64,000 bases of DNA from a virus (IMGVR_UViG_3300013132_000036:20524-84523); one strand, 5' to 3'; shown: positions 3,383 through 13,258, counted from the first letter of the stretch. Numbers and translations: made by a program. The notes: a model not told the origin generated them from the sequence alone.

Positions 3383-3727
3383 TTATTTTTTTATTTTAGT
3401 TATAAATTCTCTATAATCTGAAAGATTTTGCATCTTCCTAGCTTTAGATTTTTTCGGTGTATTCGATTCTGGACTAAGGTGCGGAATAATAGTAGCTATT
3501 CCTTCTTCAATCTCTTCTGGTAATTTTTTATGTTTTGTACTAGCATAATCCTTAAGAGCTTTCTTCTTCATATTATTAGCTATCTCCACTATAGTTTCCC
3601 TATATGCTGAATCTATTTTCCTTGGATTTAATCCCTCTTTTCCGTTCGTGTCCATCCACTTACGTACTCCGTGTGCTTGCCCCATGAGTCTCTGTTGTGT
3701 TCTTGAAACAGATTTCTCGTTTAACAT
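3383..3727 (-). CDS. DUF3008-like small basic protein; probable 3' half of an interrupted gene
   Basis: KSVSRTQQRLMG...MKKKALKDYASTKHKKLPE resembles DUF3008 (KS.AQQ...ASTK.KGLPE); ATG overlaps the endonuclease stop. Confidence 0.6.
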   Translation of the reverse strand: MLNEKSVSRTQQRLMGQAHGVRKWMDTNGKEGLNPRKIDSAYRETIVEIANNMKKKALKDYASTKHKKLPEEIEEGIATIIPHLSPESNTPKKSKARKMQNLSDYREFITKIKK

Positions 3728-4497
3728 AATTTATTTATTATTATTTCCTTAACTTCCTCCGGTCTATTTTCTATTAAGCTACCATCAAATCTAATAACTT
3801 CATACCCCATATCCTTTAGCTTTTTAGTTTGTATTAAGTCTTTTTCTCTCCTCCCTGGTAAATTGTGCCAATAGTCGCCATCAGCAAATATTAATGTTTT
3901 ATTTATTTTAAAATCAGCTATAGATATATTTTTTATAACATGCTGTGAATCGTATTTTATACCAAGATCGATTATTATTTTCTCGATGATTCTTTCTATA
4001 TTAGTGGAAGATTTATTTGAGAATTTTACTATCCCGATACAATGACATTTTCTAGAGCAATATATAGCTGGGGATTTATAATTTTCAGATCTTTCGAAAA
4101 AAGAATCACAAATAACACATTTATGTTGAATCATATTAACCCTGTTTTTACCTTTTAATTCTGAATGTATTCTTTCTAAAGAACATTTCTTATTACAATA
4201 TTTTCTTTTAGAATTTTTTCTAACCTCAAAAGTATTATTACAATTTACACAATTTCTTTCTTCCCTAGGTATCCACATATGATGTAATTCATTCTTTCTA
4301 CCTTTTTTTGATTTTGATTCAATATTACTAGAAGAATCTATAAACTTTTTTAAAAACTCAGGGTCCTCCATCCTTTTTTTACCATTAAATATTCCGTTGC
4401 ACGATCTAGAACAAAAAATTTTACGTATAATATCCCTTCTATTCCGTATATTTAATATAGAGCTACAATTCTTACAATATTTTATATCGTATTTCAT
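3721..4497 (-). mobile_element. Free-standing homing-endonuclease-like gene: Zn-ribbon repeats + Vsr/DUF559 PD-(D/E)XK nuclease
   Basis: Three CxxC...CS/CNxxC modules, then TNIERII...IADF...FADGDYWH...KD...GYEVIRF; likely start ATG 4497 (MKYDIKYC), TAATG-coupled to the upstream stop (track start 4548). Confidence 0.8.
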
Positions 4498-4670
4498 TAA
4501 GTTTTTTGGAATTTTGGTTTTTTCTTTATATATTCGTTCCATGTCCAAATAAATCTTCTATAGTTATTCTTAACTATATTAAAACCAGTATCTCCTTTAG
4601 GAATCTTTACTGGGGAAACTGGAGGTTCGTATGAACTAGTTTCTGCTGAACTTCTTTTCGTTTTACCCAT
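4497..4670 (-). CDS. 57-aa ORF missing from the track; probable 5' half of the gene interrupted by the endonuclease
   Basis: MGKTKRSSAETSSYEPPVSPVKIPKGDTGFNIVKNNYRRFIWTWNEYIKKKPKFQKT*; A-rich leader, GATATATA 42 nt upstream. Confidence 0.65.
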   Translation of the reverse strand: MGKTKRSSAETSSYEPPVSPVKIPKGDTGFNIVKNNYRRFIWTWNEYIKKKPKFQKT

Positions 4671-5241: not shown

Positions 5242-5553
5242 TTATTCGTTTACGCTGGAAGCTTTTAGGATTCTTTTACCTAGAGTAGTTAGAGAGAAAT
5301 AGTTTGCTTCTTCCTCTTGGACTTTATATCTGATATATTTTTTTTGTCCTCTAACCCAATTCATGGAAGGCTTCCTTCCTGAAGCATCTTCTGGTACGCT
5401 ATCTAAGAATTCCGTAAGCTCTCTTTTGGTTACTTTCTCCTTCTCTCCTATAAAGGAAAGAACTTTTATTGTTGTGGCAGATGGTTTAGCCCAAGCTATT
5501 GGAATCCTAGATTCATTTATAAATTCTTTATATGAAAGAATATTACTAATCAT
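5242..5553 (-). CDS. Hypothetical protein, capsid-targeting-like N-terminus, possible winged helix
   Basis: MISNILSYKEFINES; KVTKRELTEFL...YFSLTTLGKRIL resembles a wHTH wing. Confidence 0.65.
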   Translation of the reverse strand: MISNILSYKEFINESRIPIAWAKPSATTIKVLSFIGEKEKVTKRELTEFLDSVPEDASGRKPSMNWVRGQKKYIRYKVQEEEANYFSLTTLGKRILKASSVNE

Positions 5554-6082
5554 GATCCCTTCTAGTATAAATTAAAGTTTCCTCATCAGGTCCTTCTTGA
5601 ACGCTCCATTTTTCATAGCTCCATTCTCCCATTAATGTTTCTACTCTGTCTTTATACTCTGAAAAATCAATATTTAGATTCATAGTAATCTCATCATAGA
5701 TTTTAGAGACCTTAGGATTATTTTGTAAATAGTCTTTTATTGCTTCACTCAGGATTCGGTAAAATCTCATGAACTCTGATCTGGTAAGATTGAAATCGTC
5801 ATCCTCTCTAGATTTGTAATCAGTATCATTTACTAAATAGTCATCAAGTATTCCAATTTTAATTGGCTCCACTGATAAAACACAATAACTATTTTCTGCT
5901 TCATCTATAGAAGATCCCCTGGAAAGTTTACCTATATTAATAATAAATCCTAGATTTTCCTCCTCGCCCTCTATTTTAAAGTAGTACTTGGAAACCTTCC
6001 CGTCTTTCTTTTTAGCAAAGAAGTCTCTTCCGAAACCATCTTCTTCCATTAAAAAATTCTCAAATAATTTTATATGCTTCAT
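5546..6082 (-). CDS. Hypothetical acidic protein, capsid-targeting-like N-terminus
   Basis: MKHIKLFENFLMEE; 178 aa, overlaps the next gene. Confidence 0.7.
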   Translation of the reverse strand: MKHIKLFENFLMEEDGFGRDFFAKKKDGKVSKYYFKIEGEEENLGFIINIGKLSRGSSIDEAENSYCVLSVEPIKIGILDDYLVNDTDYKSREDDDFNLTRSEFMRFYRILSEAIKDYLQNNPKVSKIYDEITMNLNIDFSEYKDRVETLMGEWSYEKWSVQEGPDEETLIYTRRDHD

Positions 6083-6084
6083 AA

Positions 6085-6357
6085 TTAACTATCTCCTTTT
6101 CTTGGAAAAATTGCGGATGTGTTAGGAATATATCCTTTTTTCTTTCTCTTGAATATTTCACCTCTAACAATGTTTCCATAGTATTTATCTATAAGGTTCC
6201 ATCCTTCCTCTAACTCTTGTAAATCTACATCATCTAATTTAGAAAACTCCTCCTTAACTAGATTTATCCTTTCCATAGCCTCTTCTAAAAGTTTTTTACT
6301 ATTAGAAAGGTCATACTTATAGGTATGACCCTCTTTTATTTGGCTATATTTTTTCAT
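6085..6357 (-). CDS. Hypothetical protein
   Basis: 90 aa, tightly packed; starts MKKYSQIKE. Confidence 0.6.
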   Translation of the reverse strand: MKKYSQIKEGHTYKYDLSNSKKLLEEAMERINLVKEEFSKLDDVDLQELEEGWNLIDKYYGNIVRGEIFKRKKKGYIPNTSAIFPRKGDS

Positions 6358-6358
6358 T

Positions 6359-7963
6359 CTAAAATGTTATTCCTAGTTTAGCTCCCCATTTGTCTGCTAA
6401 AGGACCAAGACAAGAGTACATTGCAGGGTCTGTTTGTAATTCTGGGTGTAAATTAAAGAATGTTGCAAGAGCTGCTGATCCTTCCTCTTCAAGATCTGTT
6501 CTCTCTAACCATTTAGCATAGTTACAAACTTCAGTAGGGGTCAGTTTAATTTCTTTACTTTTTCTAATAACTGCTCCAAATAAAGCGTGAGTGTAATCCG
6601 GTTTATTTCCTTTGTCTGCAGGGATTGGTGCTTTTGCCGGATCAGTATATGGTAAAATAAGTTCTCTAACCGGAATGTCCTTAGCAACCTTATAAAAATT
6701 TAAGAAAGATACAGCAGCATCATTACCTACGTTTTTAGAAAATTCCTTCTTTATAACATCCTCTGGGATATTAGTAATTCCTTTTGCTTCTAAATTTCTA
6801 ATTACTCTTGATAAAGAGTTAGAGGCATCAACCCAAGCCCTAGGGGTAGGGTATTTAGTTTTCTTAGTGGCAGGATCTAAATTATGGAAGAAGTCAGGCT
6901 GGAATTCTAAGAAATCTAAAAGTTCGGGTAAAACAACATTTTTATATCTGCTTCTTTCCACATAAGATCTAAATCCTTTTATGGTAGGCACGAAGTTAAC
7001 TGCTTGAAATCTGTCTCTAAGTGCAGTTCCTAATTCTTTAACAGATTTATCATCCTGCTTTCTGTTACCTGCTGCTACAATATACCATCTTTCTGGAATA
7101 TTATAATTGTTTCCAATTCTTCTTGATTGTGCAAGTTTCATAAATATTTTAATAACCTCCTCTGGCATACGATTTAACTCATCAATAAATATTATTCCAC
7201 CTTTACCATTCCTACCATTATCATAAGGAAGAATATCTATGTTGATATTTGATCTTGTTACTCCCGCACCTGCGTAATTTCTCTCTGGATCTGGCTCTTT
7301 CATAGTTACTACACTAGGTACACCAGCAAAATCAACAGGTTCAGCATTTTCTCCATCTACATTGACTAAAGAAAGCTTATGCCCATATAATTCTTTTCCT
7401 AATTCGTCACAAACCTGTGCTACTATCTGTGTTTTACCAATCCCAGGAGCTCCGTAAATAAAAATAGGCTTAACATCTAGAATTCCCCTGTACATGTCAT
7501 CTAATTCGTCTTCAGTTGCCCCGGCTTTCTTAGCAGCATCCATTTCATCAGCAATTCTGAAGATCTCTCTCATGTTTGTTTTGATGTCCTCCTTTATTTC
7601 CGGTTCGGAGTAATTAGGTACGTCGTCTGAAATAGGATATTCAAGGGGAACTGCATCTTCCCATAAAAAACTTTCACCAAGGGTCTCTGGTTTTTCAAGA
7701 TTACCCATGTTATAGTATTCTGTTCCTTTATAGAAATTATTAACCTGACTTAAAATAGATTCACTCTTAGAATCGTCAAATAAAGCAACCCTCGGGGTTC
7801 CTGTTTTAGGGCCAGAAGATATCAATTTAACTAAACCCGACTTAACCGCATTGTATAGGCCTTTTGCCCATGAAGATATTTTCGATCCTAAATTGGATAA
7901 AAATCCCTCACTCATATATGATTCATTTACGAATTCATCGAAATTATAAATTCTTTTAGCCAT
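6359..7963 (-). CDS. MoxR-type AAA+ ATPase with N-terminal extension
   Basis: Walker A GAPGIGKT, Walker B IIFIDELNR, AAGN, ALRDRF, PTPRAW; N-terminus MAKRIYNFDEFVNES. Confidence 0.9.
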   Translation of the reverse strand: MAKRIYNFDEFVNESYMSEGFLSNLGSKISSWAKGLYNAVKSGLVKLISSGPKTGTPRVALFDDSKSESILSQVNNFYKGTEYYNMGNLEKPETLGESFLWEDAVPLEYPISDDVPNYSEPEIKEDIKTNMREIFRIADEMDAAKKAGATEDELDDMYRGILDVKPIFIYGAPGIGKTQIVAQVCDELGKELYGHKLSLVNVDGENAEPVDFAGVPSVVTMKEPDPERNYAGAGVTRSNINIDILPYDNGRNGKGGIIFIDELNRMPEEVIKIFMKLAQSRRIGNNYNIPERWYIVAAGNRKQDDKSVKELGTALRDRFQAVNFVPTIKGFRSYVERSRYKNVVLPELLDFLEFQPDFFHNLDPATKKTKYPTPRAWVDASNSLSRVIRNLEAKGITNIPEDVIKKEFSKNVGNDAAVSFLNFYKVAKDIPVRELILPYTDPAKAPIPADKGNKPDYTHALFGAVIRKSKEIKLTPTEVCNYAKWLERTDLEEEGSAALATFFNLHPELQTDPAMYSCLGPLADKWGAKLGITF

Positions 7964-7985
7964 TTTTATTCTATTATTTACCTTG

Positions 7986-7993
7986 TATATATC
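7986..7993 (-). promoter_or_regulatory. Candidate late promoter GATATATA
   Basis: 22 nt upstream of the MoxR ATG. Confidence 0.55.
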
Positions 7994-7997
7994 TTTT

Positions 7998-9005
7998 TTA
8001 TATTCTTTTTACGTTCTTGTTGGCAAGAACAATGTCTATTCTTTCACCAAAAGGTTGGGAGTTAGGATAAGGCTCATCATTGAAGGTTAGGAATACCCAA
8101 ATACATCGGTCACCATATTCAGAAATGTCATAGTCATTTTCAGAAGGAAAACCTGCCTCACCGTCAGTAAAGTATATAAAAACTGTGGGTGTTTCACCTT
8201 CCTGATCTATCATGTTTTTTTGAACCCATTTGAATGGGGGCCAAAAATAAGTTCCTCCTCCTCCCGCTATTTTATTATAATCCGGAAGATCTCCTGGCTC
8301 TAATATATCTGGTTCATAAACTTGTGTGTCACAATACAATATAACTGTTTTATTTGGGTTATACTCTTGAGTTATATTCGTAACTTCTCCTAGAAATTGT
8401 TCTATCATTTCTCTTGTAATAGATCCAGAGGTATCTATTGCAACAACTACACTCTGAAAATCTTCCTTATATCTCTTATAGCCATATTGAGCTTTTCCTG
8501 ATCCCAGAAATCTTCTAGAGGGTAATGTATATTTGGATTTAGATATAGCTTGATCTATATACTTTGAAAGTTCTTCTTTCCAATCTATAACAGGTCTTTT
8601 AGTTTTTTGAATTGCTCTCTTTAGCTGAGCCGGGATATTTCCTGCATTAGTACCTGCAATTCTAGTTATATCTTCCCATTCTTCGGCTAATGTTTCACCA
8701 TTAAGTCCGCTGTCTCCTCCGAGATCCCCAAGTTCCCCAGGTCTAAGAATTTCCCCTGGATTATACCCATCCTTGACTTTAGGTCCTCCTCCTCCTGTTT
8801 CGGTCCTTTTAAATTCAGATTCTTCTTCCTTTATTTTACCATCTTTGTCCCTCTCCGGAACTTCCCTATCTGGAACGTCATCTCCCCACTCATCTATATT
8901 TTCTGGCTTAGGTATAGGAAAATCGGGGGGAAAATCTCCGGTTCCGCCTCCGCCGCCTCCTTCTCTAATTTCTTGTATTCTTACGCCTGTTATTTTTGCT
9001 TTCAT
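7998..9005 (-). CDS. vWA domain protein (C-terminal half of a DUF2201-type protein)
   Basis: IDWKEEL, PSRR, MIDAS VVAIDTSGSI, CDTQV, GGGGT.F.PPF, IYFTDG. Confidence 0.88.
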   Translation of the reverse strand: MKAKITGVRIQEIREGGGGGGTGDFPPDFPIPKPENIDEWGDDVPDREVPERDKDGKIKEEESEFKRTETGGGGPKVKDGYNPGEILRPGELGDLGGDSGLNGETLAEEWEDITRIAGTNAGNIPAQLKRAIQKTKRPVIDWKEELSKYIDQAISKSKYTLPSRRFLGSGKAQYGYKRYKEDFQSVVVAIDTSGSITREMIEQFLGEVTNITQEYNPNKTVILYCDTQVYEPDILEPGDLPDYNKIAGGGGTYFWPPFKWVQKNMIDQEGETPTVFIYFTDGEAGFPSENDYDISEYGDRCIWVFLTFNDEPYPNSQPFGERIDIVLANKNVKRI

Positions 9006-9039
9006 ATATTAAATCCTTTTTTTCATAGAACGTATTAAA

Positions 9040-9900
9040 TTAGAAGTCTAATTCTTTTTCTATATCATCTCCTAATATATTTTCACCCTTAGCTTTTCTC
9101 TGTAGATATTCTTTAACCTTATTTTTCGGTATAGGATCATACTCAAGCTCACCTGATGTCTCGTCTATAGACTTAACTATACCATAAGAATCATTATCTT
9201 TATCGTATATAATGTCACCAACTACAGGATCCTTTGGCGGTGGTGGAGGTGGTGGAGGTGTGGTCGGAGGATATCCTTCCTCAGGAACATATCCATTAGA
9301 AAGAAGCTTCTCATATATCCATTCTGCACTCCTGTTTACGAATTCATAATCATAAGGAACATGGCCACATCCAGGATATAATGATCCCTCTACCATTTTT
9401 CCTATCCCTCCTTTAGAAACAGGTTTAGGCTTATCGGAATTTATCGTGCTTGTATCTACGGGTGTTAACAACTGATTAAGTGCATAATCTGCTGCAACGT
9501 TCCATACACCTGCTTTAGTTTTATCCTTAGGACATCTTAAAAAGTGTACCAATGTATTGTGTAAAACCTCATGTGCAATAACCCATATTATCTCCTCATC
9601 TGTACGACCTAGAACAAAATCTGGATCATAGTGTATACTAACACCATCAGTTGCCATTGTTTTATATTCAAGATTTCTGTTTTCTCTGATAATCAATCGA
9701 GATAACATCGATGCAAAAAATGGATATGATCCGTTTAGTAAAAATACACACGCCCTCATTTTTTTCAGAGCTGCGGGATTGTGTGGTGTTTTGTTTCTTT
9801 CGTCTAAATAGATTGCTTCATTTAAACTGTTATACTCTGAATAACCAAATCTAGCATATTCAAAAATTGCAAAATCACTGAAGGATAATATTCTTTTCAT
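9040..9900 (-). CDS. HEXXH metallopeptidase-like protein (DUF2201 N-terminal domain)
   Basis: PFFASML, TMATDG..IHYDPDF, HEVLH...H, WNVAADYALN, SAEWIYE; N-terminus MKRILSFSDF...LNEA; poly-Pro linker then a small beta domain. Confidence 0.88.
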   Translation of the reverse strand: MKRILSFSDFAIFEYARFGYSEYNSLNEAIYLDERNKTPHNPAALKKMRACVFLLNGSYPFFASMLSRLIIRENRNLEYKTMATDGVSIHYDPDFVLGRTDEEIIWVIAHEVLHNTLVHFLRCPKDKTKAGVWNVAADYALNQLLTPVDTSTINSDKPKPVSKGGIGKMVEGSLYPGCGHVPYDYEFVNRSAEWIYEKLLSNGYVPEEGYPPTTPPPPPPPPKDPVVGDIIYDKDNDSYGIVKSIDETSGELEYDPIPKNKVKEYLQRKAKGENILGDDIEKELDF

Positions 9901-9917
9901 TCCTTTGTTTAATTACA

Positions 9918-11927
9918 CTATATATCCTCTTCAGAACCGTTTATTTGTTTGGTAAATTCATTGAAAAGAACTGCTACTGATTTAGGAACTTTACTTTTAA
10001 ATTGTTGAAAATCTCCGTCTTTTATGTAAGTCCTAATATCATTATTATTTGACCATTGAGGAGTTTTATATATTTCTATATCTCCTCCCTCTAAGTCGTA
10101 TTTATTTCTTACCCATTCTCTCTGTAGAATCATGTTTTCAAAATCTCTTTCCCCTATACATACTGACGCAGGGTTAGCATATTTAACAACTGCATTTAGA
10201 GCGTCTTCTAAAAGATTGGACGGTATTATCTGATACCCTGCAAAAAGCTTATTATTCTCCGATGTTAGAGATCCTATTGATTTTCTTATTAAATCTTCAG
10301 AGAATGGATATTTTGATCCAGGCTCACTTCCTGGATGAACCACACAAAGGAAAACAGGTAAATTATTTTCCTTCTTTAATCTGGTACACATTTTTAAATG
10401 CCCATTATTAAAAGGCTGGAATTTCCCGATTACTATATTTACTTTCTGGTTGTTCTCGTTTAATATCTTAATCTTTCTTTTCTCTTTATGTGTAGTTACT
10501 ACTTTTTTAAAATCTTTAAATGAAAAAAATTCGGATGCGTCTTCGCTTTTTTTCTCCTCCTCAGTTATAACCGTAGGCGTTTCTGATTCATTAAGAGAAA
10601 CAGGATCTTCAGAAGAAGATCCCTCTATTATTTCTTCCAGCTCATCTATTTCATCTTCTTCTTCGCTCATTGTTGGATTAAATTTGCTACCTGCTTTTTT
10701 AAACCAAACAAAGCTAGGAACTCCTAAAGATTCCTCTACTAAATCTTTTTTCTTAGCGTTTATATAGCCAGCGATTTCTTCAACTAGCATGTTAAACTGT
10801 TGTATTAGACCTTCTGTGAAAAATCCATGTGGTTTTCTTTTAAGCTTCCTGAAGGAATTAAGAATCATCTGGAGAATGTCTATATAAACTTCATCATCTT
10901 CTATAGACTTTAACACCTCTTCATCGATTATTAAATCCTTGTTTATTTCAAATCCCTCTGATTTTAAATATTCAGGTTTTTGAAAATCAGCGCCTACGTA
11001 TTTTTCTCCCTCCTCATATACAAATCTCTTAAATACATTAAAAACAAAACTGATGTATCTTTCTTCCGGATCGTTTCCTTCAGCTGTGAAATTTTCTACA
11101 CCAGTCTCTAATATGAAATTCATTACATCTATAAGACATAAAGAATAAACATCGCTAGGGAAGTATGAAGTCTGGGTAACTTTTCTACTTTTGTTTATCT
11201 CATGGAAAACTGGATCAACCATTTTTGCTAAAACTGTTTCCTCCTTACCATCTTCATCTTCGAATCTGAAAACAAGAGAATCTATTTCCCCCTGTAGATC
11301 CTTACCAAGGGTTGTTCTTTCTACGTTTTTGTTTAATATAGAAATTAAATAGTTACTAAAGCTAGCAGTTTTAAATTTACTTTTAAGATCCATTAAAGGA
11401 GTTGAAAGGAAATCCATTATCGCTATCTTCTGATCCCTATTAAGTTTACCTTGGAATATAATAGGGGATCTCTCTACTTCTAGCTTATCTGCCCACTCGT
11501 CTAGCTCGTTCTTATCCTGTAAATTTTTAATAACGTCGCCGAATTCATCTCTAACAACAACGTGTGTTAAAACAAGATGATTTTTTGGTACCCTGTCGTA
11601 TTCGATCCTAACAGGTTTTTTATTGGGAAAGTAAACCATTCCAAATCTCCACCCTTTAGGAAGCTGATCAGTGATTTCAAGTGACAATGATTCTATATAA
11701 ATTATAGGCTTTTCGTAATATTTCATTAATATCCTATCAACCTTAGTTATAGGGTTATCTTGATCTTTTTTATAAAAAGATATATTATCTCCAGTAAAAT
11801 CCCTCTCGAAAGAAAAAGAAGGTCCATCTAAATTCTCAGTTACTGTTAAATTTTTATTGAAAAGGCTTTCAATGAAGGACTTTCCTTTTTTCTCGTATAT
11901 GTCCGTTAAGTATTTTATTCCAGCCAT
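9918..11927 (-). CDS. Fusion of an ATP-dependent RNA-ligase-like domain and a cytidylyltransferase-like (HIGH) domain, both degenerate
   Basis: VTENLDG (cf. motif I TEKxDG), PIIFQG, EIDSLVFR, LAKMVD; C-terminal IVIGKFQPFNNGH (cf. GRFQPFHxGH), CIGERD, SNNNDIR; likely start MAGIKYL at 11927 (track 11939). Confidence 0.65.
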   Translation of the reverse strand: MAGIKYLTDIYEKKGKSFIESLFNKNLTVTENLDGPSFSFERDFTGDNISFYKKDQDNPITKVDRILMKYYEKPIIYIESLSLEITDQLPKGWRFGMVYFPNKKPVRIEYDRVPKNHLVLTHVVVRDEFGDVIKNLQDKNELDEWADKLEVERSPIIFQGKLNRDQKIAIMDFLSTPLMDLKSKFKTASFSNYLISILNKNVERTTLGKDLQGEIDSLVFRFEDEDGKEETVLAKMVDPVFHEINKSRKVTQTSYFPSDVYSLCLIDVMNFILETGVENFTAEGNDPEERYISFVFNVFKRFVYEEGEKYVGADFQKPEYLKSEGFEINKDLIIDEEVLKSIEDDEVYIDILQMILNSFRKLKRKPHGFFTEGLIQQFNMLVEEIAGYINAKKKDLVEESLGVPSFVWFKKAGSKFNPTMSEEEDEIDELEEIIEGSSSEDPVSLNESETPTVITEEEKKSEDASEFFSFKDFKKVVTTHKEKRKIKILNENNQKVNIVIGKFQPFNNGHLKMCTRLKKENNLPVFLCVVHPGSEPGSKYPFSEDLIRKSIGSLTSENNKLFAGYQIIPSNLLEDALNAVVKYANPASVCIGERDFENMILQREWVRNKYDLEGGDIEIYKTPQWSNNNDIRTYIKDGDFQQFKSKVPKSVAVLFNEFTKQINGSEEDI
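9919..9926 (-). promoter_or_regulatory. Candidate late promoter GATATATA
   Basis: 18 nt upstream of ATG 9900, overlapping the end of the upstream gene. Confidence 0.55.
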
Positions 11928-12376: not shown

Positions 12377-13258
12377 TTATTCGTCTTCGTCTTCTTCGTC
12401 CTCGTCGTATTCTTCTTCGTCCTCGTCGTCTTCGATTTCGTCTTCCACTTCATCATCATCTCCTTGAGGAATAGTAGCAGAATACTCGTCATCTTCATCC
12501 TCATCCTCATCTTCATCCTCATCTTCCTCGTAGCTGCCTTCAGTTTCTTCCGGATGACCGTTATGCTCTTCTCCATAGGTATATCCAGAATTTGGATCTT
12601 CGTGTTCTTCCTCCTCTCCCATTTCTTCTTCCTCTTCTATCTCGTTCCAAACAGGTTGCATTTTACAAGTTAGATATTTGCAATAAACATCTCCAGTTTT
12701 TCTGTCTTCGATTGTTACCATTCTAGGCCCGTTTATCTCGTCTAGTTCTATACTTGCAGCAAACATTTTAGACTCTTCTAAATTAGCAAAAGGTCCGAAA
12801 GTGTAAGCTCCTAGATCAGGAGTAGTTTTTACTTTAAGTGGAGAGGACATCATATCTTTACTGTATCTAATCATTTCTCCCCCTTTATCAAAATAAAAAT
12901 CGTCACACATAGTTACGAAATGGTAGTTAGGATCCCCACCATCGCCTACCATCTGCTTAGCCATTTCCATGGTCCTAGACTCATTCATTTTCTTTTTGGC
13001 GAAATCAAATTTAGATCCAGTTGCTTTAGGTTTTATACCCTTCTCTTTTTTATAATCACTCCAAGCTTTAGATAAGCCATCCATGTACTTTTCTTGAGCT
13101 TTTCTATCACCTTGGAATTTTTTATCAAAAGGTCCAGAAACACCATGCTTCTTGTGGTACTTTTTAGAGAACTCAAGGTACATATTTCTTTCATTGACTA
13201 CCTGACTTTCTTTTAGTTCTTGCTTCTTTTTTTCTACTGCTGAAGAGAATTTTTTCAT
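12377..13258 (-). CDS. Protein with basic N-terminus and highly acidic C-terminal tail
   Basis: 293 aa; K-rich first ~90 aa with LKES/VNE/MNES sites; last ~85 aa mostly D/E. Confidence 0.75.
   Translation of the reverse strand: MKKFSSAVEKKKQELKESQVVNERNMYLEFSKKYHKKHGVSGPFDKKFQGDRKAQEKYMDGLSKAWSDYKKEKGIKPKATGSKFDFAKKKMNESRTMEMAKQMVGDGGDPNYHFVTMCDDFYFDKGGEMIRYSKDMMSSPLKVKTTPDLGAYTFGPFANLEESKMFAASIELDEINGPRMVTIEDRKTGDVYCKYLTCKMQPVWNEIEEEEEMGEEEEHEDPNSGYTYGEEHNGHPEETEGSYEEDEDEDEDEDEDDEYSATIPQGDDDEVEDEIEDDEDEEEYDEDEEDEDE

Follow-up and report, generated by a model that had tools for sequence, protein, structure and literature searches.

The window, a 64,000-nucleotide stretch of DNA, comes from an uncultured freshwater (lake-water) jumbo phage that is kin to the huge phages of Bacteroidota, and belongs to a larger fragment of 84.5 kb; the contig is 31% complete and has a G+C content of 34%. 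A MoxR-class AAA+ ATPase, a protein with a zincin-like HExxH domain and a protein with a vWA-like domain are encoded there beside three small ORFs (Table 1). The coordinates that a sequence-only reading had given for the module at 6359-9900 all proved correct when ORFs and octamers were re-checked. We propose that the genes at 5242-9926 form a pair of late-type transcription units of a T4-related freshwater jumbo phage: in the first, the octamer GATATATA would be followed by the zincin half and the vWA half of a split protein; in the second, it would be followed by the MoxR ATPase and the three small ORFs. Module order is maintained in five relatives (L004-L008), and the module genes are adjacent in L027. 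The module was absent from the cultured relatives examined (MaF61, pT24, PTm1 and PAU).

Table 1. Genes and promoter-like elements of the MoxR/zincin/vWA module, with positions counted from the first letter of the window.
Feature	Position	Strand	Evidence or remark
GATATATA promoter-like octamer	9919..9926	-	18 nt upstream of peptidase-half start; kept in 5/5 relatives (L004-L008)
N-terminal (zincin) half of split DUF2201_N/DUF2201 protein, 286 aa	9040..9900	-	Pfam PF13203, PHROG 1314
C-terminal (vWA) half of split DUF2201_N/DUF2201 protein, 335 aa	7998..9005	-	Pfam PF09967, PHROG 1314
GATATATA promoter-like octamer	7986..7993	-	22 nt upstream of MoxR start; kept in 5/5 relatives (L004-L008)
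MoxR-class AAA+ ATPase, 534 aa	6359..7963	-	Pfam, PHROG, motifs, AF2 model, Foldseek
90-aa ORF, tightly coupled to MoxR stop	6085..6357	-	order kept in L004-L008
178-aa ORF of MoxR unit, leader MKHIKLFENFLMEE	5546..6082	-	kept in L004-L008
103-aa ORF, last of MoxR unit, leader MISNILSYKEFINE/S	5242..5553	-	leader regex

The MoxR ORF begins MAKRIYNFDEFVNES and is laid out as a leader peptide (MAKRIYNFDEFVNE/S, residues 1-14; here and below, a slash marks the boundary after Glu), a clade-specific N-terminal extension reaching about residue 165, the AAA+ core and a C-terminal part that is helical. About 140 further residues after the leader are conserved and partly folded, and therefore the extension is more than a tag. 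Pfam assigned AAA_5 (41.3 bits, cut-off 22) and AAA (28.7 bits), while AAA_3, the MoxR model proper, scored 16.8 bits against a cut-off of 27; the paralogue of this ATPase reached 25.4 bits with bpMoxR (cut-off 27), and precomputed matches to PF07726 or PF20030 exist for some homologues. Both Walker motifs are present, A as GAPGIGKT171 and B as IIFIDE257, and G171, K177, T178, D261 and E262 are invariant in an alignment of 60 sequences. The AF2 model (pLDDT 81.6; below 50 for residues 1-27, with a short helix at 8-14) was matched best by NorQ in Foldseek (E 6e-6, TM 0.54-0.59) and by CbbQ2 in VIA (Z 13.0, rmsd 4.2 over 245 residues), followed by NorQ (Z 12.5), with dynein, VCP and proteasomal AAA+ proteins within about 1 Z of these scores. 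A vWA/MIDAS partner adjoins the gene: the vWA-like ORF stops 34 nt short of the MoxR start. Downstream in the same unit, the 90-aa ORF lacks a leader and, like the 178-aa ORF, had no family match in Pfam or PHROG; Atlas leads for the 178-aa ORF were weak. The leader of the 103-aa ORF contains YKEFINE, near the YQEFIAE of T4 IPII/IPIII, and the protein may be a winged-helix protein, a lead taken from an Atlas score below 0.9 to winged-helix clusters.

The HExxH and vWA ORFs are, by their domain coverage, two halves of one ancestral protein. The zincin half, which begins MKRILSFSDFAIFEY...SLNEA, comprises a leader at residues 1-28 (MKRILSFSDFAIFE/Y...SLNE/A), the zincin-like HExxH domain and, after a Pro-rich linker at 211-222, a small beta domain spanning 230-257. 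It matches DUF2201_N (PF13203) at 60.1 bits (cut-off 23.2), and H110, E111 and H114 of its zinc motif (HEVLH110-114) are invariant in 48 sequences. Its AF2 model (pLDDT 83.6; residues 1-28 below 50) drew weak Foldseek matches, to zincins only (selecase, E 0.018; thermolysins; SPRTN). The vWA half combines a Gly-rich N-terminus and the end of DUF2201_N with a vWA-like domain, whose MIDAS residues are DTSGS191-195 and TDG280; this half matches PF09967 (DUF2201, VWA-like) at 67 bits and positions 199-257 of PF13203 at 27.3 bits. It starts 34 nt after the zincin half and has neither a leader nor a GATATATA of its own. DUF2201_N itself is thus divided between the two ORFs, and the 394 positions of PHROG 1314 are shared out in the same way, 13-151 to the zincin half and 175-390 to the vWA half. 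The sequence-only reading had placed a vWA partner with an intact MIDAS between the two tagged genes; the MIDAS is indeed there, but the ORF is not a separate partner family, and the picture of an untagged partner gives way to that of the second half of a split protein. In the undivided form of the family the two domains share a polypeptide of about 370-490 aa, which makes the present arrangement a split variant. Clade members keep the split, L004-L008 as well as the distant L027, and of 120 DUF2201 homologues 76 are split and 44 fused.

Both tagged genes were correctly said to have GATATATA upstream; the two copies lie on the coding strand, and the one ahead of the zincin half overlaps the stop of the upstream 673-aa gene. 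Counted over the whole window, the octamers do not exceed chance (9 copies, 7.4 expected). Their placement is strongly skewed: 12 of the 15 copies on the 84.5-kb contig sit upstream of a same-strand start at a distance of 50 nt or less (44-fold, binomial p 5e-19), and 25 of 36 copies are so placed in the nearest relative, G002 (29-fold), where GATATATA is the top upstream 8-mer. The octamer precedes head and tail genes, as had been claimed for tail and baseplate genes: it stands ahead of the protease-scaffold gene in 29/29 loci, and ahead of post-capsid and tail-fibre-like genes. By position, GATATATA behaves like a putative structural-gene promoter. It also precedes a topoisomerase-like gene and endonuclease-like genes, so that its timing need not be late. 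The T4 late promoter has the consensus TATAAATA at about -10; GATATATA is a different word, and we rejected it as a T4 late promoter.

The claim that the ATPase and the HExxH protein both start with a peptide resembling a capsid-targeting sequence (CTS) was borne out: the peptides are flexible and end in V-N-E or L-N-E. AF2 predicted residues 1-27 of MoxR and 1-28 of the peptidase to be disordered, ahead of the folded domains. The leader ends read VNE/S, IFE/Y and LNE/A, and the core Y/F-x-E/D-F-I/V-x-E is common to the leader and to T4 IPII/IPIII (MKTYQEFIAE/A, read from the T4 record). A leader regular expression matched the N-terminus of 9 of 72 called genes, compared with 3 internal matches in 26,244 residues, a 68-fold enrichment, and all 5 matches of [YF].[ED]F[IVL].E in the contig fall within the first 20 aa of a protein. 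In G002, 13 of 167 genes matched the leader expression. Overall the leader is common to about 10-15% of genes, which cluster round the two MoxR copies; their products include the ATPase, the zincin, an adenylate kinase and several proteins of no assigned function.

The leader has also been kept, in 117 of 120 MoxR homologues (33-83% identical) and in 66 of 76 split-form peptidase homologues, versus 7 of 44 fused forms. Synonymous codons vary among leaders, so selection acts on the peptide. That the leader is an added, clade-specific part holds as well: it is absent from the homologues of cyanophage S-TIM5 and one N4-like phage and from 37 of 44 fused DUF2201 homologues. Walker A lies within about 30 aa of the start in the leaderless ATPases of S-TIM5 (331 aa) and the N4-like phage (350 aa). 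GATATATA is kept in all five relatives, and leader and octamer are associated both in the contig (odds ratio 8, p 0.004) and in G002 (odds ratio 5.4, p 0.001).

Relatives connect the leader to a head module. G002, whose MoxR is 86% identical, encodes a Peptidase_S77 domain (42.8 bits) fused to a repeat scaffold, together with a gp23-type capsid protein (124.6 bits). Such gp21-type protease and gp23-type capsid genes occur in G002 and 29 related loci; neither is on the 31%-complete contig. The motif [ILVMF]NE[SAG] has 27 matches in the 47,274 aa of G002; the protease-scaffold protein contains 6 of these (Poisson p 3.9e-6), and 11 fall within a protein's first 45 aa. Across the 29 related head loci, its density is 6.6 per 1000 aa in protease-scaffold ORFs versus 0.98 in other ORFs. 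The capsid protein lacks the leader and carries an invariant HSLNE/SAG at residue 41; its alignment to T4 gp23 is too weak for placing the capsid cleavage site. The motif thus behaves like a candidate cleavage motif of the S77 prohead protease. A leader HMM made from 28 sequences, the opening 34 residues encoded by the second gene past the capsid gene, matched the MoxR paralogue at E 8e-6, the peptidase half at 3.9e-4, the 103-aa ORF at 7e-4 and MoxR at 8.9e-4, in every case at the N-terminus; the best reversed decoy scored E 0.81. Head-module genes, assigned to the head by position alone, therefore appear to bear the same leader.

The leader is very like a T4 head-loading tag, so late synthesis of the machine and its uptake into the head as it forms are probable. 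Together, the likeness of leader and motif to the head module and the protease-scaffold and the placement of GATATATA make loading into the prohead, followed by trimming, the best reading, one that we hold with belief and doubt in about equal measure. The ATPase and the zincin half would each bear a flexible N-terminal amphipathic peptide that acts like the T4 capsid-targeting sequence and docks the protein on the scaffolding core during prohead building. The T4-type (S77) prohead protease would then remove the leader after (V/L/I)-x-Glu, with cuts predicted to follow E14 of MoxR and, in the zincin half, E14 and/or E28. The leaderless vWA half could enter bound to the zincin half, because the two derive from a single ancestral domain pair. 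Within the prohead, the most plausible task of the MoxR-vWA-zincin machine would be to assist in remodelling or clearing the long, repeat-rich scaffold; it might instead stay in the head and leave with the DNA. We infer all of this alike: late timing, docking, cleavage, encapsidation and a role in head or host. Delivery of the module into the host is less likely, and we doubt that a T4-like address peptide brings the whole machine into the capsid and that the machine then survives maturation and enters the host with the DNA. If it does, the cargo regulon would comprise perhaps 40-60 tagged proteins per genome, and the delivered machine would remodel or degrade host proteins at the very start of infection.

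Several observations count against head loading. The module is surrounded by replication genes, head genes were not found on the 84.5-kb contig, so that the head evidence comes from relatives, and no function can be assigned to the head-module ORFs in which the leader recurs. An adenylate kinase among the tagged proteins and a tag on some 10-15% of genes amount to a large and odd cargo. T4 prohead cleavage has Leu or Ile at P3, whereas the MoxR leader has Val.

The adenylate kinase would be at home in a cytoplasmic arrangement, in which the module is a late assembly chaperone-protease acting on structural proteins outside the capsid and the leader brings it and other tagged proteins to an assembly site or hub with no encapsidation. 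We regard this as unlikely, though well worth keeping in view: it is the proposal published by Iyer et al. for the same gene pair (PMC7824862), the nearest folds, NorQ/NorD and CbbQ, are cytoplasmic remodellers, and the pair occurs untagged in N4-like phages and S-TIM5. It sits poorly with a leader that ends in the motif concentrated in the protease-scaffold protein and matches the N-termini of head-module genes, and in T4 such peptides lead to encapsidation (PMC5694885). We give little credence to the idea that, in a low-GC phage, the shared N-terminus is an element for translation start or stability whose likeness to the T4 CTS is coincidental. K, I, N, F and E do use A/T-rich codons, which are common in a 34% GC genome; yet the N-terminal enrichment is 68-fold, the peptide is kept while synonymous codons differ and persists in MoxR homologues down to 33% identity, and most genes do without it, the capsid gene and other highly expressed structural genes among them.

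Equally improbable in our judgement is that the leader marks the module's own clients or substrates, with the zincin rather than the S77 protease cutting after NE, or MoxR-vWA recognising the tags, and the ATPase and zincin processing themselves. The module has its own HExxH peptidase with invariant H110, E111 and H114, both of its tagged proteins carry the motif, and tagged genes group around the two MoxR copies. Concentration of the motif in the S77 protease-scaffold protein, with one occurrence at capsid residue 41, is instead the T4 gp21 pattern, and cutting after Glu is a trait of the gp21 family and is not known of zincins.

The sequence-only reading knew of no description of such a packaged system, which is too strong: jumbo-phage pairs have been published, a MoxR ATPase is found in the Acidianus two-tailed virus (ATV) virion, and a peptide of another has been detected in phage DC4. 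The best structural matches of the ATPase model, NorQ/NorD and CbbQ/CbbO, likewise work with a vWA/MIDAS partner; they differ in being cellular systems of metallo-enzyme maturation or Rubisco activation, with neither peptidase nor N-terminal extension. ATV p618, a MoxR ATPase, is reported to be a main constituent of the virion; it binds p892, a vWA protein, and is believed to work within the particle (PMC4124505). The role proposed for it lies in extracellular tail growth, and ATV differs as an archaeal spindle virus with no T4-type head, leader or peptidase domain.

As a loading signal, the leader most resembles the T4 CTS of 10-20 residues, which serves to load unrelated proteins and which gp21 removes (PMC5694885). 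Both T4 (IPI, IPII, IPIII and Alt) and the present phage place a short N-terminal peptide ending in (hydrophobic)-x-Glu on unrelated proteins, and relatives of this phage have a T4-type protease and capsid protein, with the motif concentrated in the scaffold-protease. Here, unlike in T4, the leader is known from sequence alone, is carried by about 10-15% of genes, not a handful, addresses large enzymes (AAA+ ATPase, zincin, adenylate kinase) and almost always has Asn at P2. In the giant phages phiKZ and SPN3US, many internal head proteins are processed after Glu by a gp21-like protease, and their propeptides are thought to be CTS-like (PMC5694885); these phages belong to another group, with an A/S-x-E motif and propeptides often longer than 100 residues. 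The sections of that source on their propeptide-bearing head and ejection proteins report no MoxR module.

The Staphylococcus jumbo phage DC4 encodes a MoxR-like ATPase, UFVDC4_00011 (516 aa), beside a 643-aa "metallopeptidase" gene, and the ATPase was seen in purified virions by one peptide in one spectrum, for which the authors ask confirmation (PMC10638138). DC4 is an AR9/PBS1-like phage, and its ATPase is likened to the present MoxR by description only. Iyer, Anantharaman, Krishnan, Burroughs and Aravind (2021) described a MoxR/metallopeptidase-vWA pair in jumbo phages and proposed a role in virion assembly (PMC7824862). Their pair, found also in N4-like phages and cyanophage S-TIM5, likewise combines AAA_5/MoxR with DUF2201_N/DUF2201 from neighbouring genes; here, by comparison, the peptidase-vWA protein is split in two genes, the ATPase is extended by 165 aa at its N-terminus, the leader is found on both tagged proteins, and every unit comes with a GATATATA.

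The 84,523-base IMG/VR viral contig of which the window forms bases 20524-84523 has a completeness of 31% (CheckV) and a GC content of ~0.34, and carries nearly all its genes on the minus strand; the stretch occurs in sequencing runs from lake-water metagenomes, and a single run carrying an RNA-Seq label is probably DNA. In its baseplate wedge and DNA polymerase genes, the phage comes nearest to uncultured huge phages (462-735 kb) and Lak phages of Prevotella; jumbo phages of Flavobacterium, Tenacibaculum, Chryseobacterium and Sphingomonas are more remote kin. The module of interest, consisting of a MoxR ATPase, a zincin half and a vWA half (Table), lies inside a block of replication genes (DNA polymerase N-half, helicase, UvsY-like protein, primase, gp32-like SSB and RuvC), and no head genes were found on this incomplete contig. 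At the DNA level the 3.5-kb module stretch matched nothing in the phage collection. The module was not found in any of the four cultured relatives checked (MaF61 of Flavobacterium, pT24 and PTm1 of Tenacibaculum, PAU of Sphingomonas), and among the phages compared with these four it occurs only in LR756500 (462 kb, uncultured).

Table. Positions of the features discussed (window coordinates unless a locus or contig is named; L012, upstream part of the window's own contig; G002, a 148-kb relative contig containing locus L011; L006, relative IMGVR_UViG_3300036770_006296)
Feature	Position	Strand	Remark
Family B DNA polymerase, apparently one of two genes	145-1551
Word GAAAC...TATAAAAT upstream of this gene	~1552-1600
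Region of 57-aa and 114-aa ORFs	3383-4670
HNH-type endonuclease gene	3721-4548		between 57-aa and 114-aa ORFs
103-aa leader ORF	5242-5553		end of MoxR unit
90-, 178- and 103-aa ORFs			after MoxR; overlaps or gaps 1-8 nt
MoxR ATPase	6359-7963	-
vWA half	7998-9005	-
Zincin half	9040-9900	-
293-aa protein with acidic C-terminus	12377-13258
Tail and baseplate genes	from ~18.8 kb
Family B DNA polymerase, apparent other gene	L012:2483-3652
Adenylate kinase	L012:15693-16352		upstream of window
Duplicated vWA half	L006:3973-5967
Protease-scaffold ORF	L011:405-2495
VSWL... repeats	L012:6-335; G002 147753-148091		contig ends

Elsewhere on the contig, two genes ~17 kb apart seem to encode a family B DNA polymerase; its N-half matches PHROG 2062, and extra endonuclease-like ORFs lie in the region of the C-half in G002. 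The HNH-type endonuclease gene has the appearance of a homing insertion peculiar to this contig, to judge from three close-relative loci (L005, L007 and L008) in which the flanking ORFs directly adjoin with no endonuclease in between. The 293-aa protein, kept in relatives, ends in ~70 residues that are nearly all Asp or Glu. Similar short peptide-level repeats at the ends of both contigs may be an assembly-breaking repeat or a genome-end feature.

DUF2201_N begins in the zincin half, where its HExxH is invariant, and the model of this half (pLDDT 83.6) gave weak fold matches, exclusively to zincins. The vWA half contains the end of DUF2201_N followed by the vWA-like DUF2201 domain with the motifs DTSGS and TDG. 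Since a single PHROG profile covers both ORFs, the two derive from a single ancestral protein, one half each, and what the sequence-only reading took for a separate vWA partner subunit is instead the second half of that protein. Five relatives (MoxR 73-86% identical) and one distant relative retain the split. The 120 database homologues divide into 76 split forms (161-292 aa, PF13203 only) and 44 fused ones (371-490 aa, both domains). S-TIM5 cyanophage and an N4-like coliphage encode a 331-350-aa ATPase followed by one fused protein of 382-419 aa, whereas here there are two ORFs. A frameshift or sequencing error is ruled out by the five close relatives and the distant one, by the tandem vWA ORFs of one relative and by the 76 split homologues; on these comparisons the split is real. 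The tandem copies, in L006, are 327 and 335 aa long, lack a leader and both begin MKAKIT. A 506-aa leader protein, considered as a second peptidase-vWA copy on the contig, had no Pfam match and no BLAST similarity to either half, and was rejected as such.

The MoxR ORF encodes an AAA+ ATPase (AAA_5, 41.3 bits; PHROG 1297, E 2e-51) with intact Walker A and Walker B motifs. Its AlphaFold model, built from 60 homologues (pLDDT 81.6), most resembles NorQ and CbbQ2, which are MoxR-class ATPases acting with vWA partners, with generic AAA+ proteins at most 1 Z away. A PDB sequence search with the three module proteins returned nothing useful. Within the module only MoxR has a paralogue on the contig, a leader-bearing protein of 35-40% identity. 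The order MoxR, 90, 178 and 103 aa is kept in five relatives, with a leader on the 178- and 103-aa ORFs. Atlas look-ups for two small co-transcribed ORFs gave leads only; those for the 103-aa ORF were winged-helix families at scores of 0.84-0.86, under the trust level, and this ORF may encode a tagged DNA-binding protein.

The leader is a short N-terminal peptide, often ending in V-N-E or L-N-E, that has been likened to the T4 capsid targeting sequence (CTS). MoxR begins MAKRIYNFDEFVNE/S and the zincin half MKRILSFSDFAIFE/Y...SLNE/A, where slashes mark predicted cleavage points. By regular expression, such a peptide begins at least 9 of the 72 called genes on the contig and is 68x rarer inside proteins; the same expression finds it at the start of 13 of 167 genes in G002, with more recognizable by eye. 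In adenylate kinase (PF00406, E 7e-32), the ADK domain starts only at residue 38 and the ~35-aa N-terminal extension carries the leader KKVSNFKEFVKE, so that the tagged set includes a metabolic enzyme. Other leader carriers are the MoxR paralogue and several proteins without any family; Pfam gave no match for several leader proteins. Leader codons vary synonymously from gene to gene; thus it is the peptide that is conserved, and recently copied DNA cassettes are ruled out.

The helix motif of the leader is kept in 117 of 120 MoxR homologues, at identities down to 33%, and NE plus a small or acidic residue occurs within the first 45 aa in 115 of the 120. Among zincin homologues, 66 of the 76 split forms carry a leader versus 7 of the 44 fused forms, and the S-TIM5 and N4-like module proteins have none. 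These comparisons bear out the earlier proposal that the N-terminal peptides of MoxR and the zincin half are additions. Both models render the leader as a tail of low confidence ahead of the fold (residues 1-27 of MoxR, 1-28 of the zincin half). Its retention in the clade, its absence in S-TIM5 and the N4-like phage, its synonymous codons and its low confidence in the models mark the leader as a clade-specific, selected N-terminal add-on.

G002, the closest relative, carries a T4-type head module. Its 696-aa protease-scaffold protein combines an S77 prohead protease domain (PF03420, 42.8 bits; PHROG 207, E 5e-38) with a subsequent scaffold-like region of ~10 tandem 14-residue repeats (YSEYLAENLDKNIS), and its capsid protein is of the gp23 type (PF07068, 124.6 bits). 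The tetrapeptide that ends leaders, [ILVMF]NE[SAG], has 27 matches among the 47,274 residues that G002 encodes. The protease-scaffold protein accounts for six of them (Poisson p 3.9e-6) and residue 41 of the capsid protein for one; 11 fall within the first 45 residues of proteins. We compared another 29 head loci, with capsid proteins 65-89% identical, in all of which the protease-scaffold ORF is 651-707 aa long. There the motif occurs 129 times in 19,536 residues of these ORFs versus 160 times in 163,570 residues of other ORFs, and HSLNESAG is invariant in the capsid protein. A motif at which the prohead protease itself cuts would be expected to show such a distribution. T4 prohead cleavage follows the rule Leu/Ile-x-Glu, and the motif fits T4's cutting after hydrophobic-x-Glu. 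For T4 Alt, PMC5694885 gives ITE-6 and LTE-619 as cleavage examples. When the G002 capsid protein was aligned with T4 gp23, the N-terminal part matched too weakly for the cleavage site to be located.

Peptides like the leader also stand at the starts of capsid-flanking genes, such as MKRIKRLEEFESLNE/GILSS and MLSFCEFINE/E. We trained an HMM solely on the N-terminal 34 residues encoded by the second post-capsid gene in 28 relatives. From the contig it retrieved the MoxR paralogue (E 8e-6), the zincin half (3.9e-4), the 103-aa ORF (7e-4), MoxR (8.9e-4) and 4-5 further leader proteins; all matches were N-terminal, and the best reversed decoy had E 0.81. None of nine post-capsid and nearby leader ORFs of G002 had a PHROG family in a search in which the protease-scaffold control matched head maturation protease. 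T4 IPII and IPIII begin MKTYQEFIAE/A (T4 record), which the contig leaders resemble, and a regular expression from their heptad had five matches in the contig, all within the first 20 residues.

The promoter-like octamer GATATATA, present 5' of the MoxR and zincin-half starts, is not over-represented overall, yet its placement is more biased than that of any other upstream word. In the contig, 12 of 15 copies are at most 50 nt 5' of a same-strand start, as are 25 of 36 in G002, and several leftover copies precede starts absent from the crude gene calls. It stands upstream of the protease-scaffold gene in 29/29 loci and also 5' of post-capsid genes, tail-fibre-like genes and most leader genes (odds ratio for the leader association 8, p 0.004, in the contig; 5.4, p 0.001, in G002). 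None was found at the polymerase, helicase, primase and SSB genes, and the polymerase gene within the window has another upstream word (Table). The vWA half, starting 34 nt after the zincin half, has no octamer of its own. Topoisomerase-like and endonuclease-like genes are preceded by it too; GATATATA thus marks a regulon that takes in structural genes and is presumably late. The T4 late promoter is TATAAATA. A scan for sigma-70-type promoters and terminators gave counts at or below shuffled expectation.

The most economical explanation of these patterns places the module in a large protein set that a T4-like peptide directs to the prohead core, where the S77 protease would trim the proteins; we give this proposal about an even chance. 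The leaderless vWA half would then enter the prohead bound to the zincin half, and the machine inside the head might act, for example, on the long repeat scaffold. Its delivery into the host is a less probable extension. A cytoplasmic assembly chaperone, with the tag merely bringing the module to the assembly site, is similarly unlikely; for the MoxR and metallopeptidase-vWA pair of jumbo phages, Iyer et al. 2021 (PMC7824862) propose a role in virion assembly and processing. We regard it as quite improbable that the module's own zincin or ATPase reads the tag. An N-terminal element with no targeting role is just as doubtful.

Virion-associated MoxR proteins have precedents. PMC4124505 describes ATV p618 as a MoxR ATPase that is a major virion component and binds the vWA protein p892. 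In Staphylococcus jumbo phage DC4, a MoxR-like ATPase encoded beside a metallopeptidase gene was detected through a single virion peptide, which its authors treat cautiously (PMC10638138). No description of a CTS-tagged MoxR module was found in the article texts searched. On that search the combination seen here is new: a zincin/vWA protein in two pieces, together with a MoxR that is extended at its N-terminus, both with a head-type leader and both under a structural-gene promoter word. If the proposal of head addressing is correct, the MoxR/vWA/zincin module, so far only guessed to be an aid to virion assembly, gains a site, either the prohead or the newly infected cell. The leader and cleavage motif are both short and well delimited, and the leader could be usable as a packaging tag in Bacteroidota phages. 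If the tag does load the head, the clade widens the T4 principle, in which head cargo is recruited by a short address that can be removed: T4 tags a few small proteins, whereas this clade would tag a tenth of its genome, large enzymes included.
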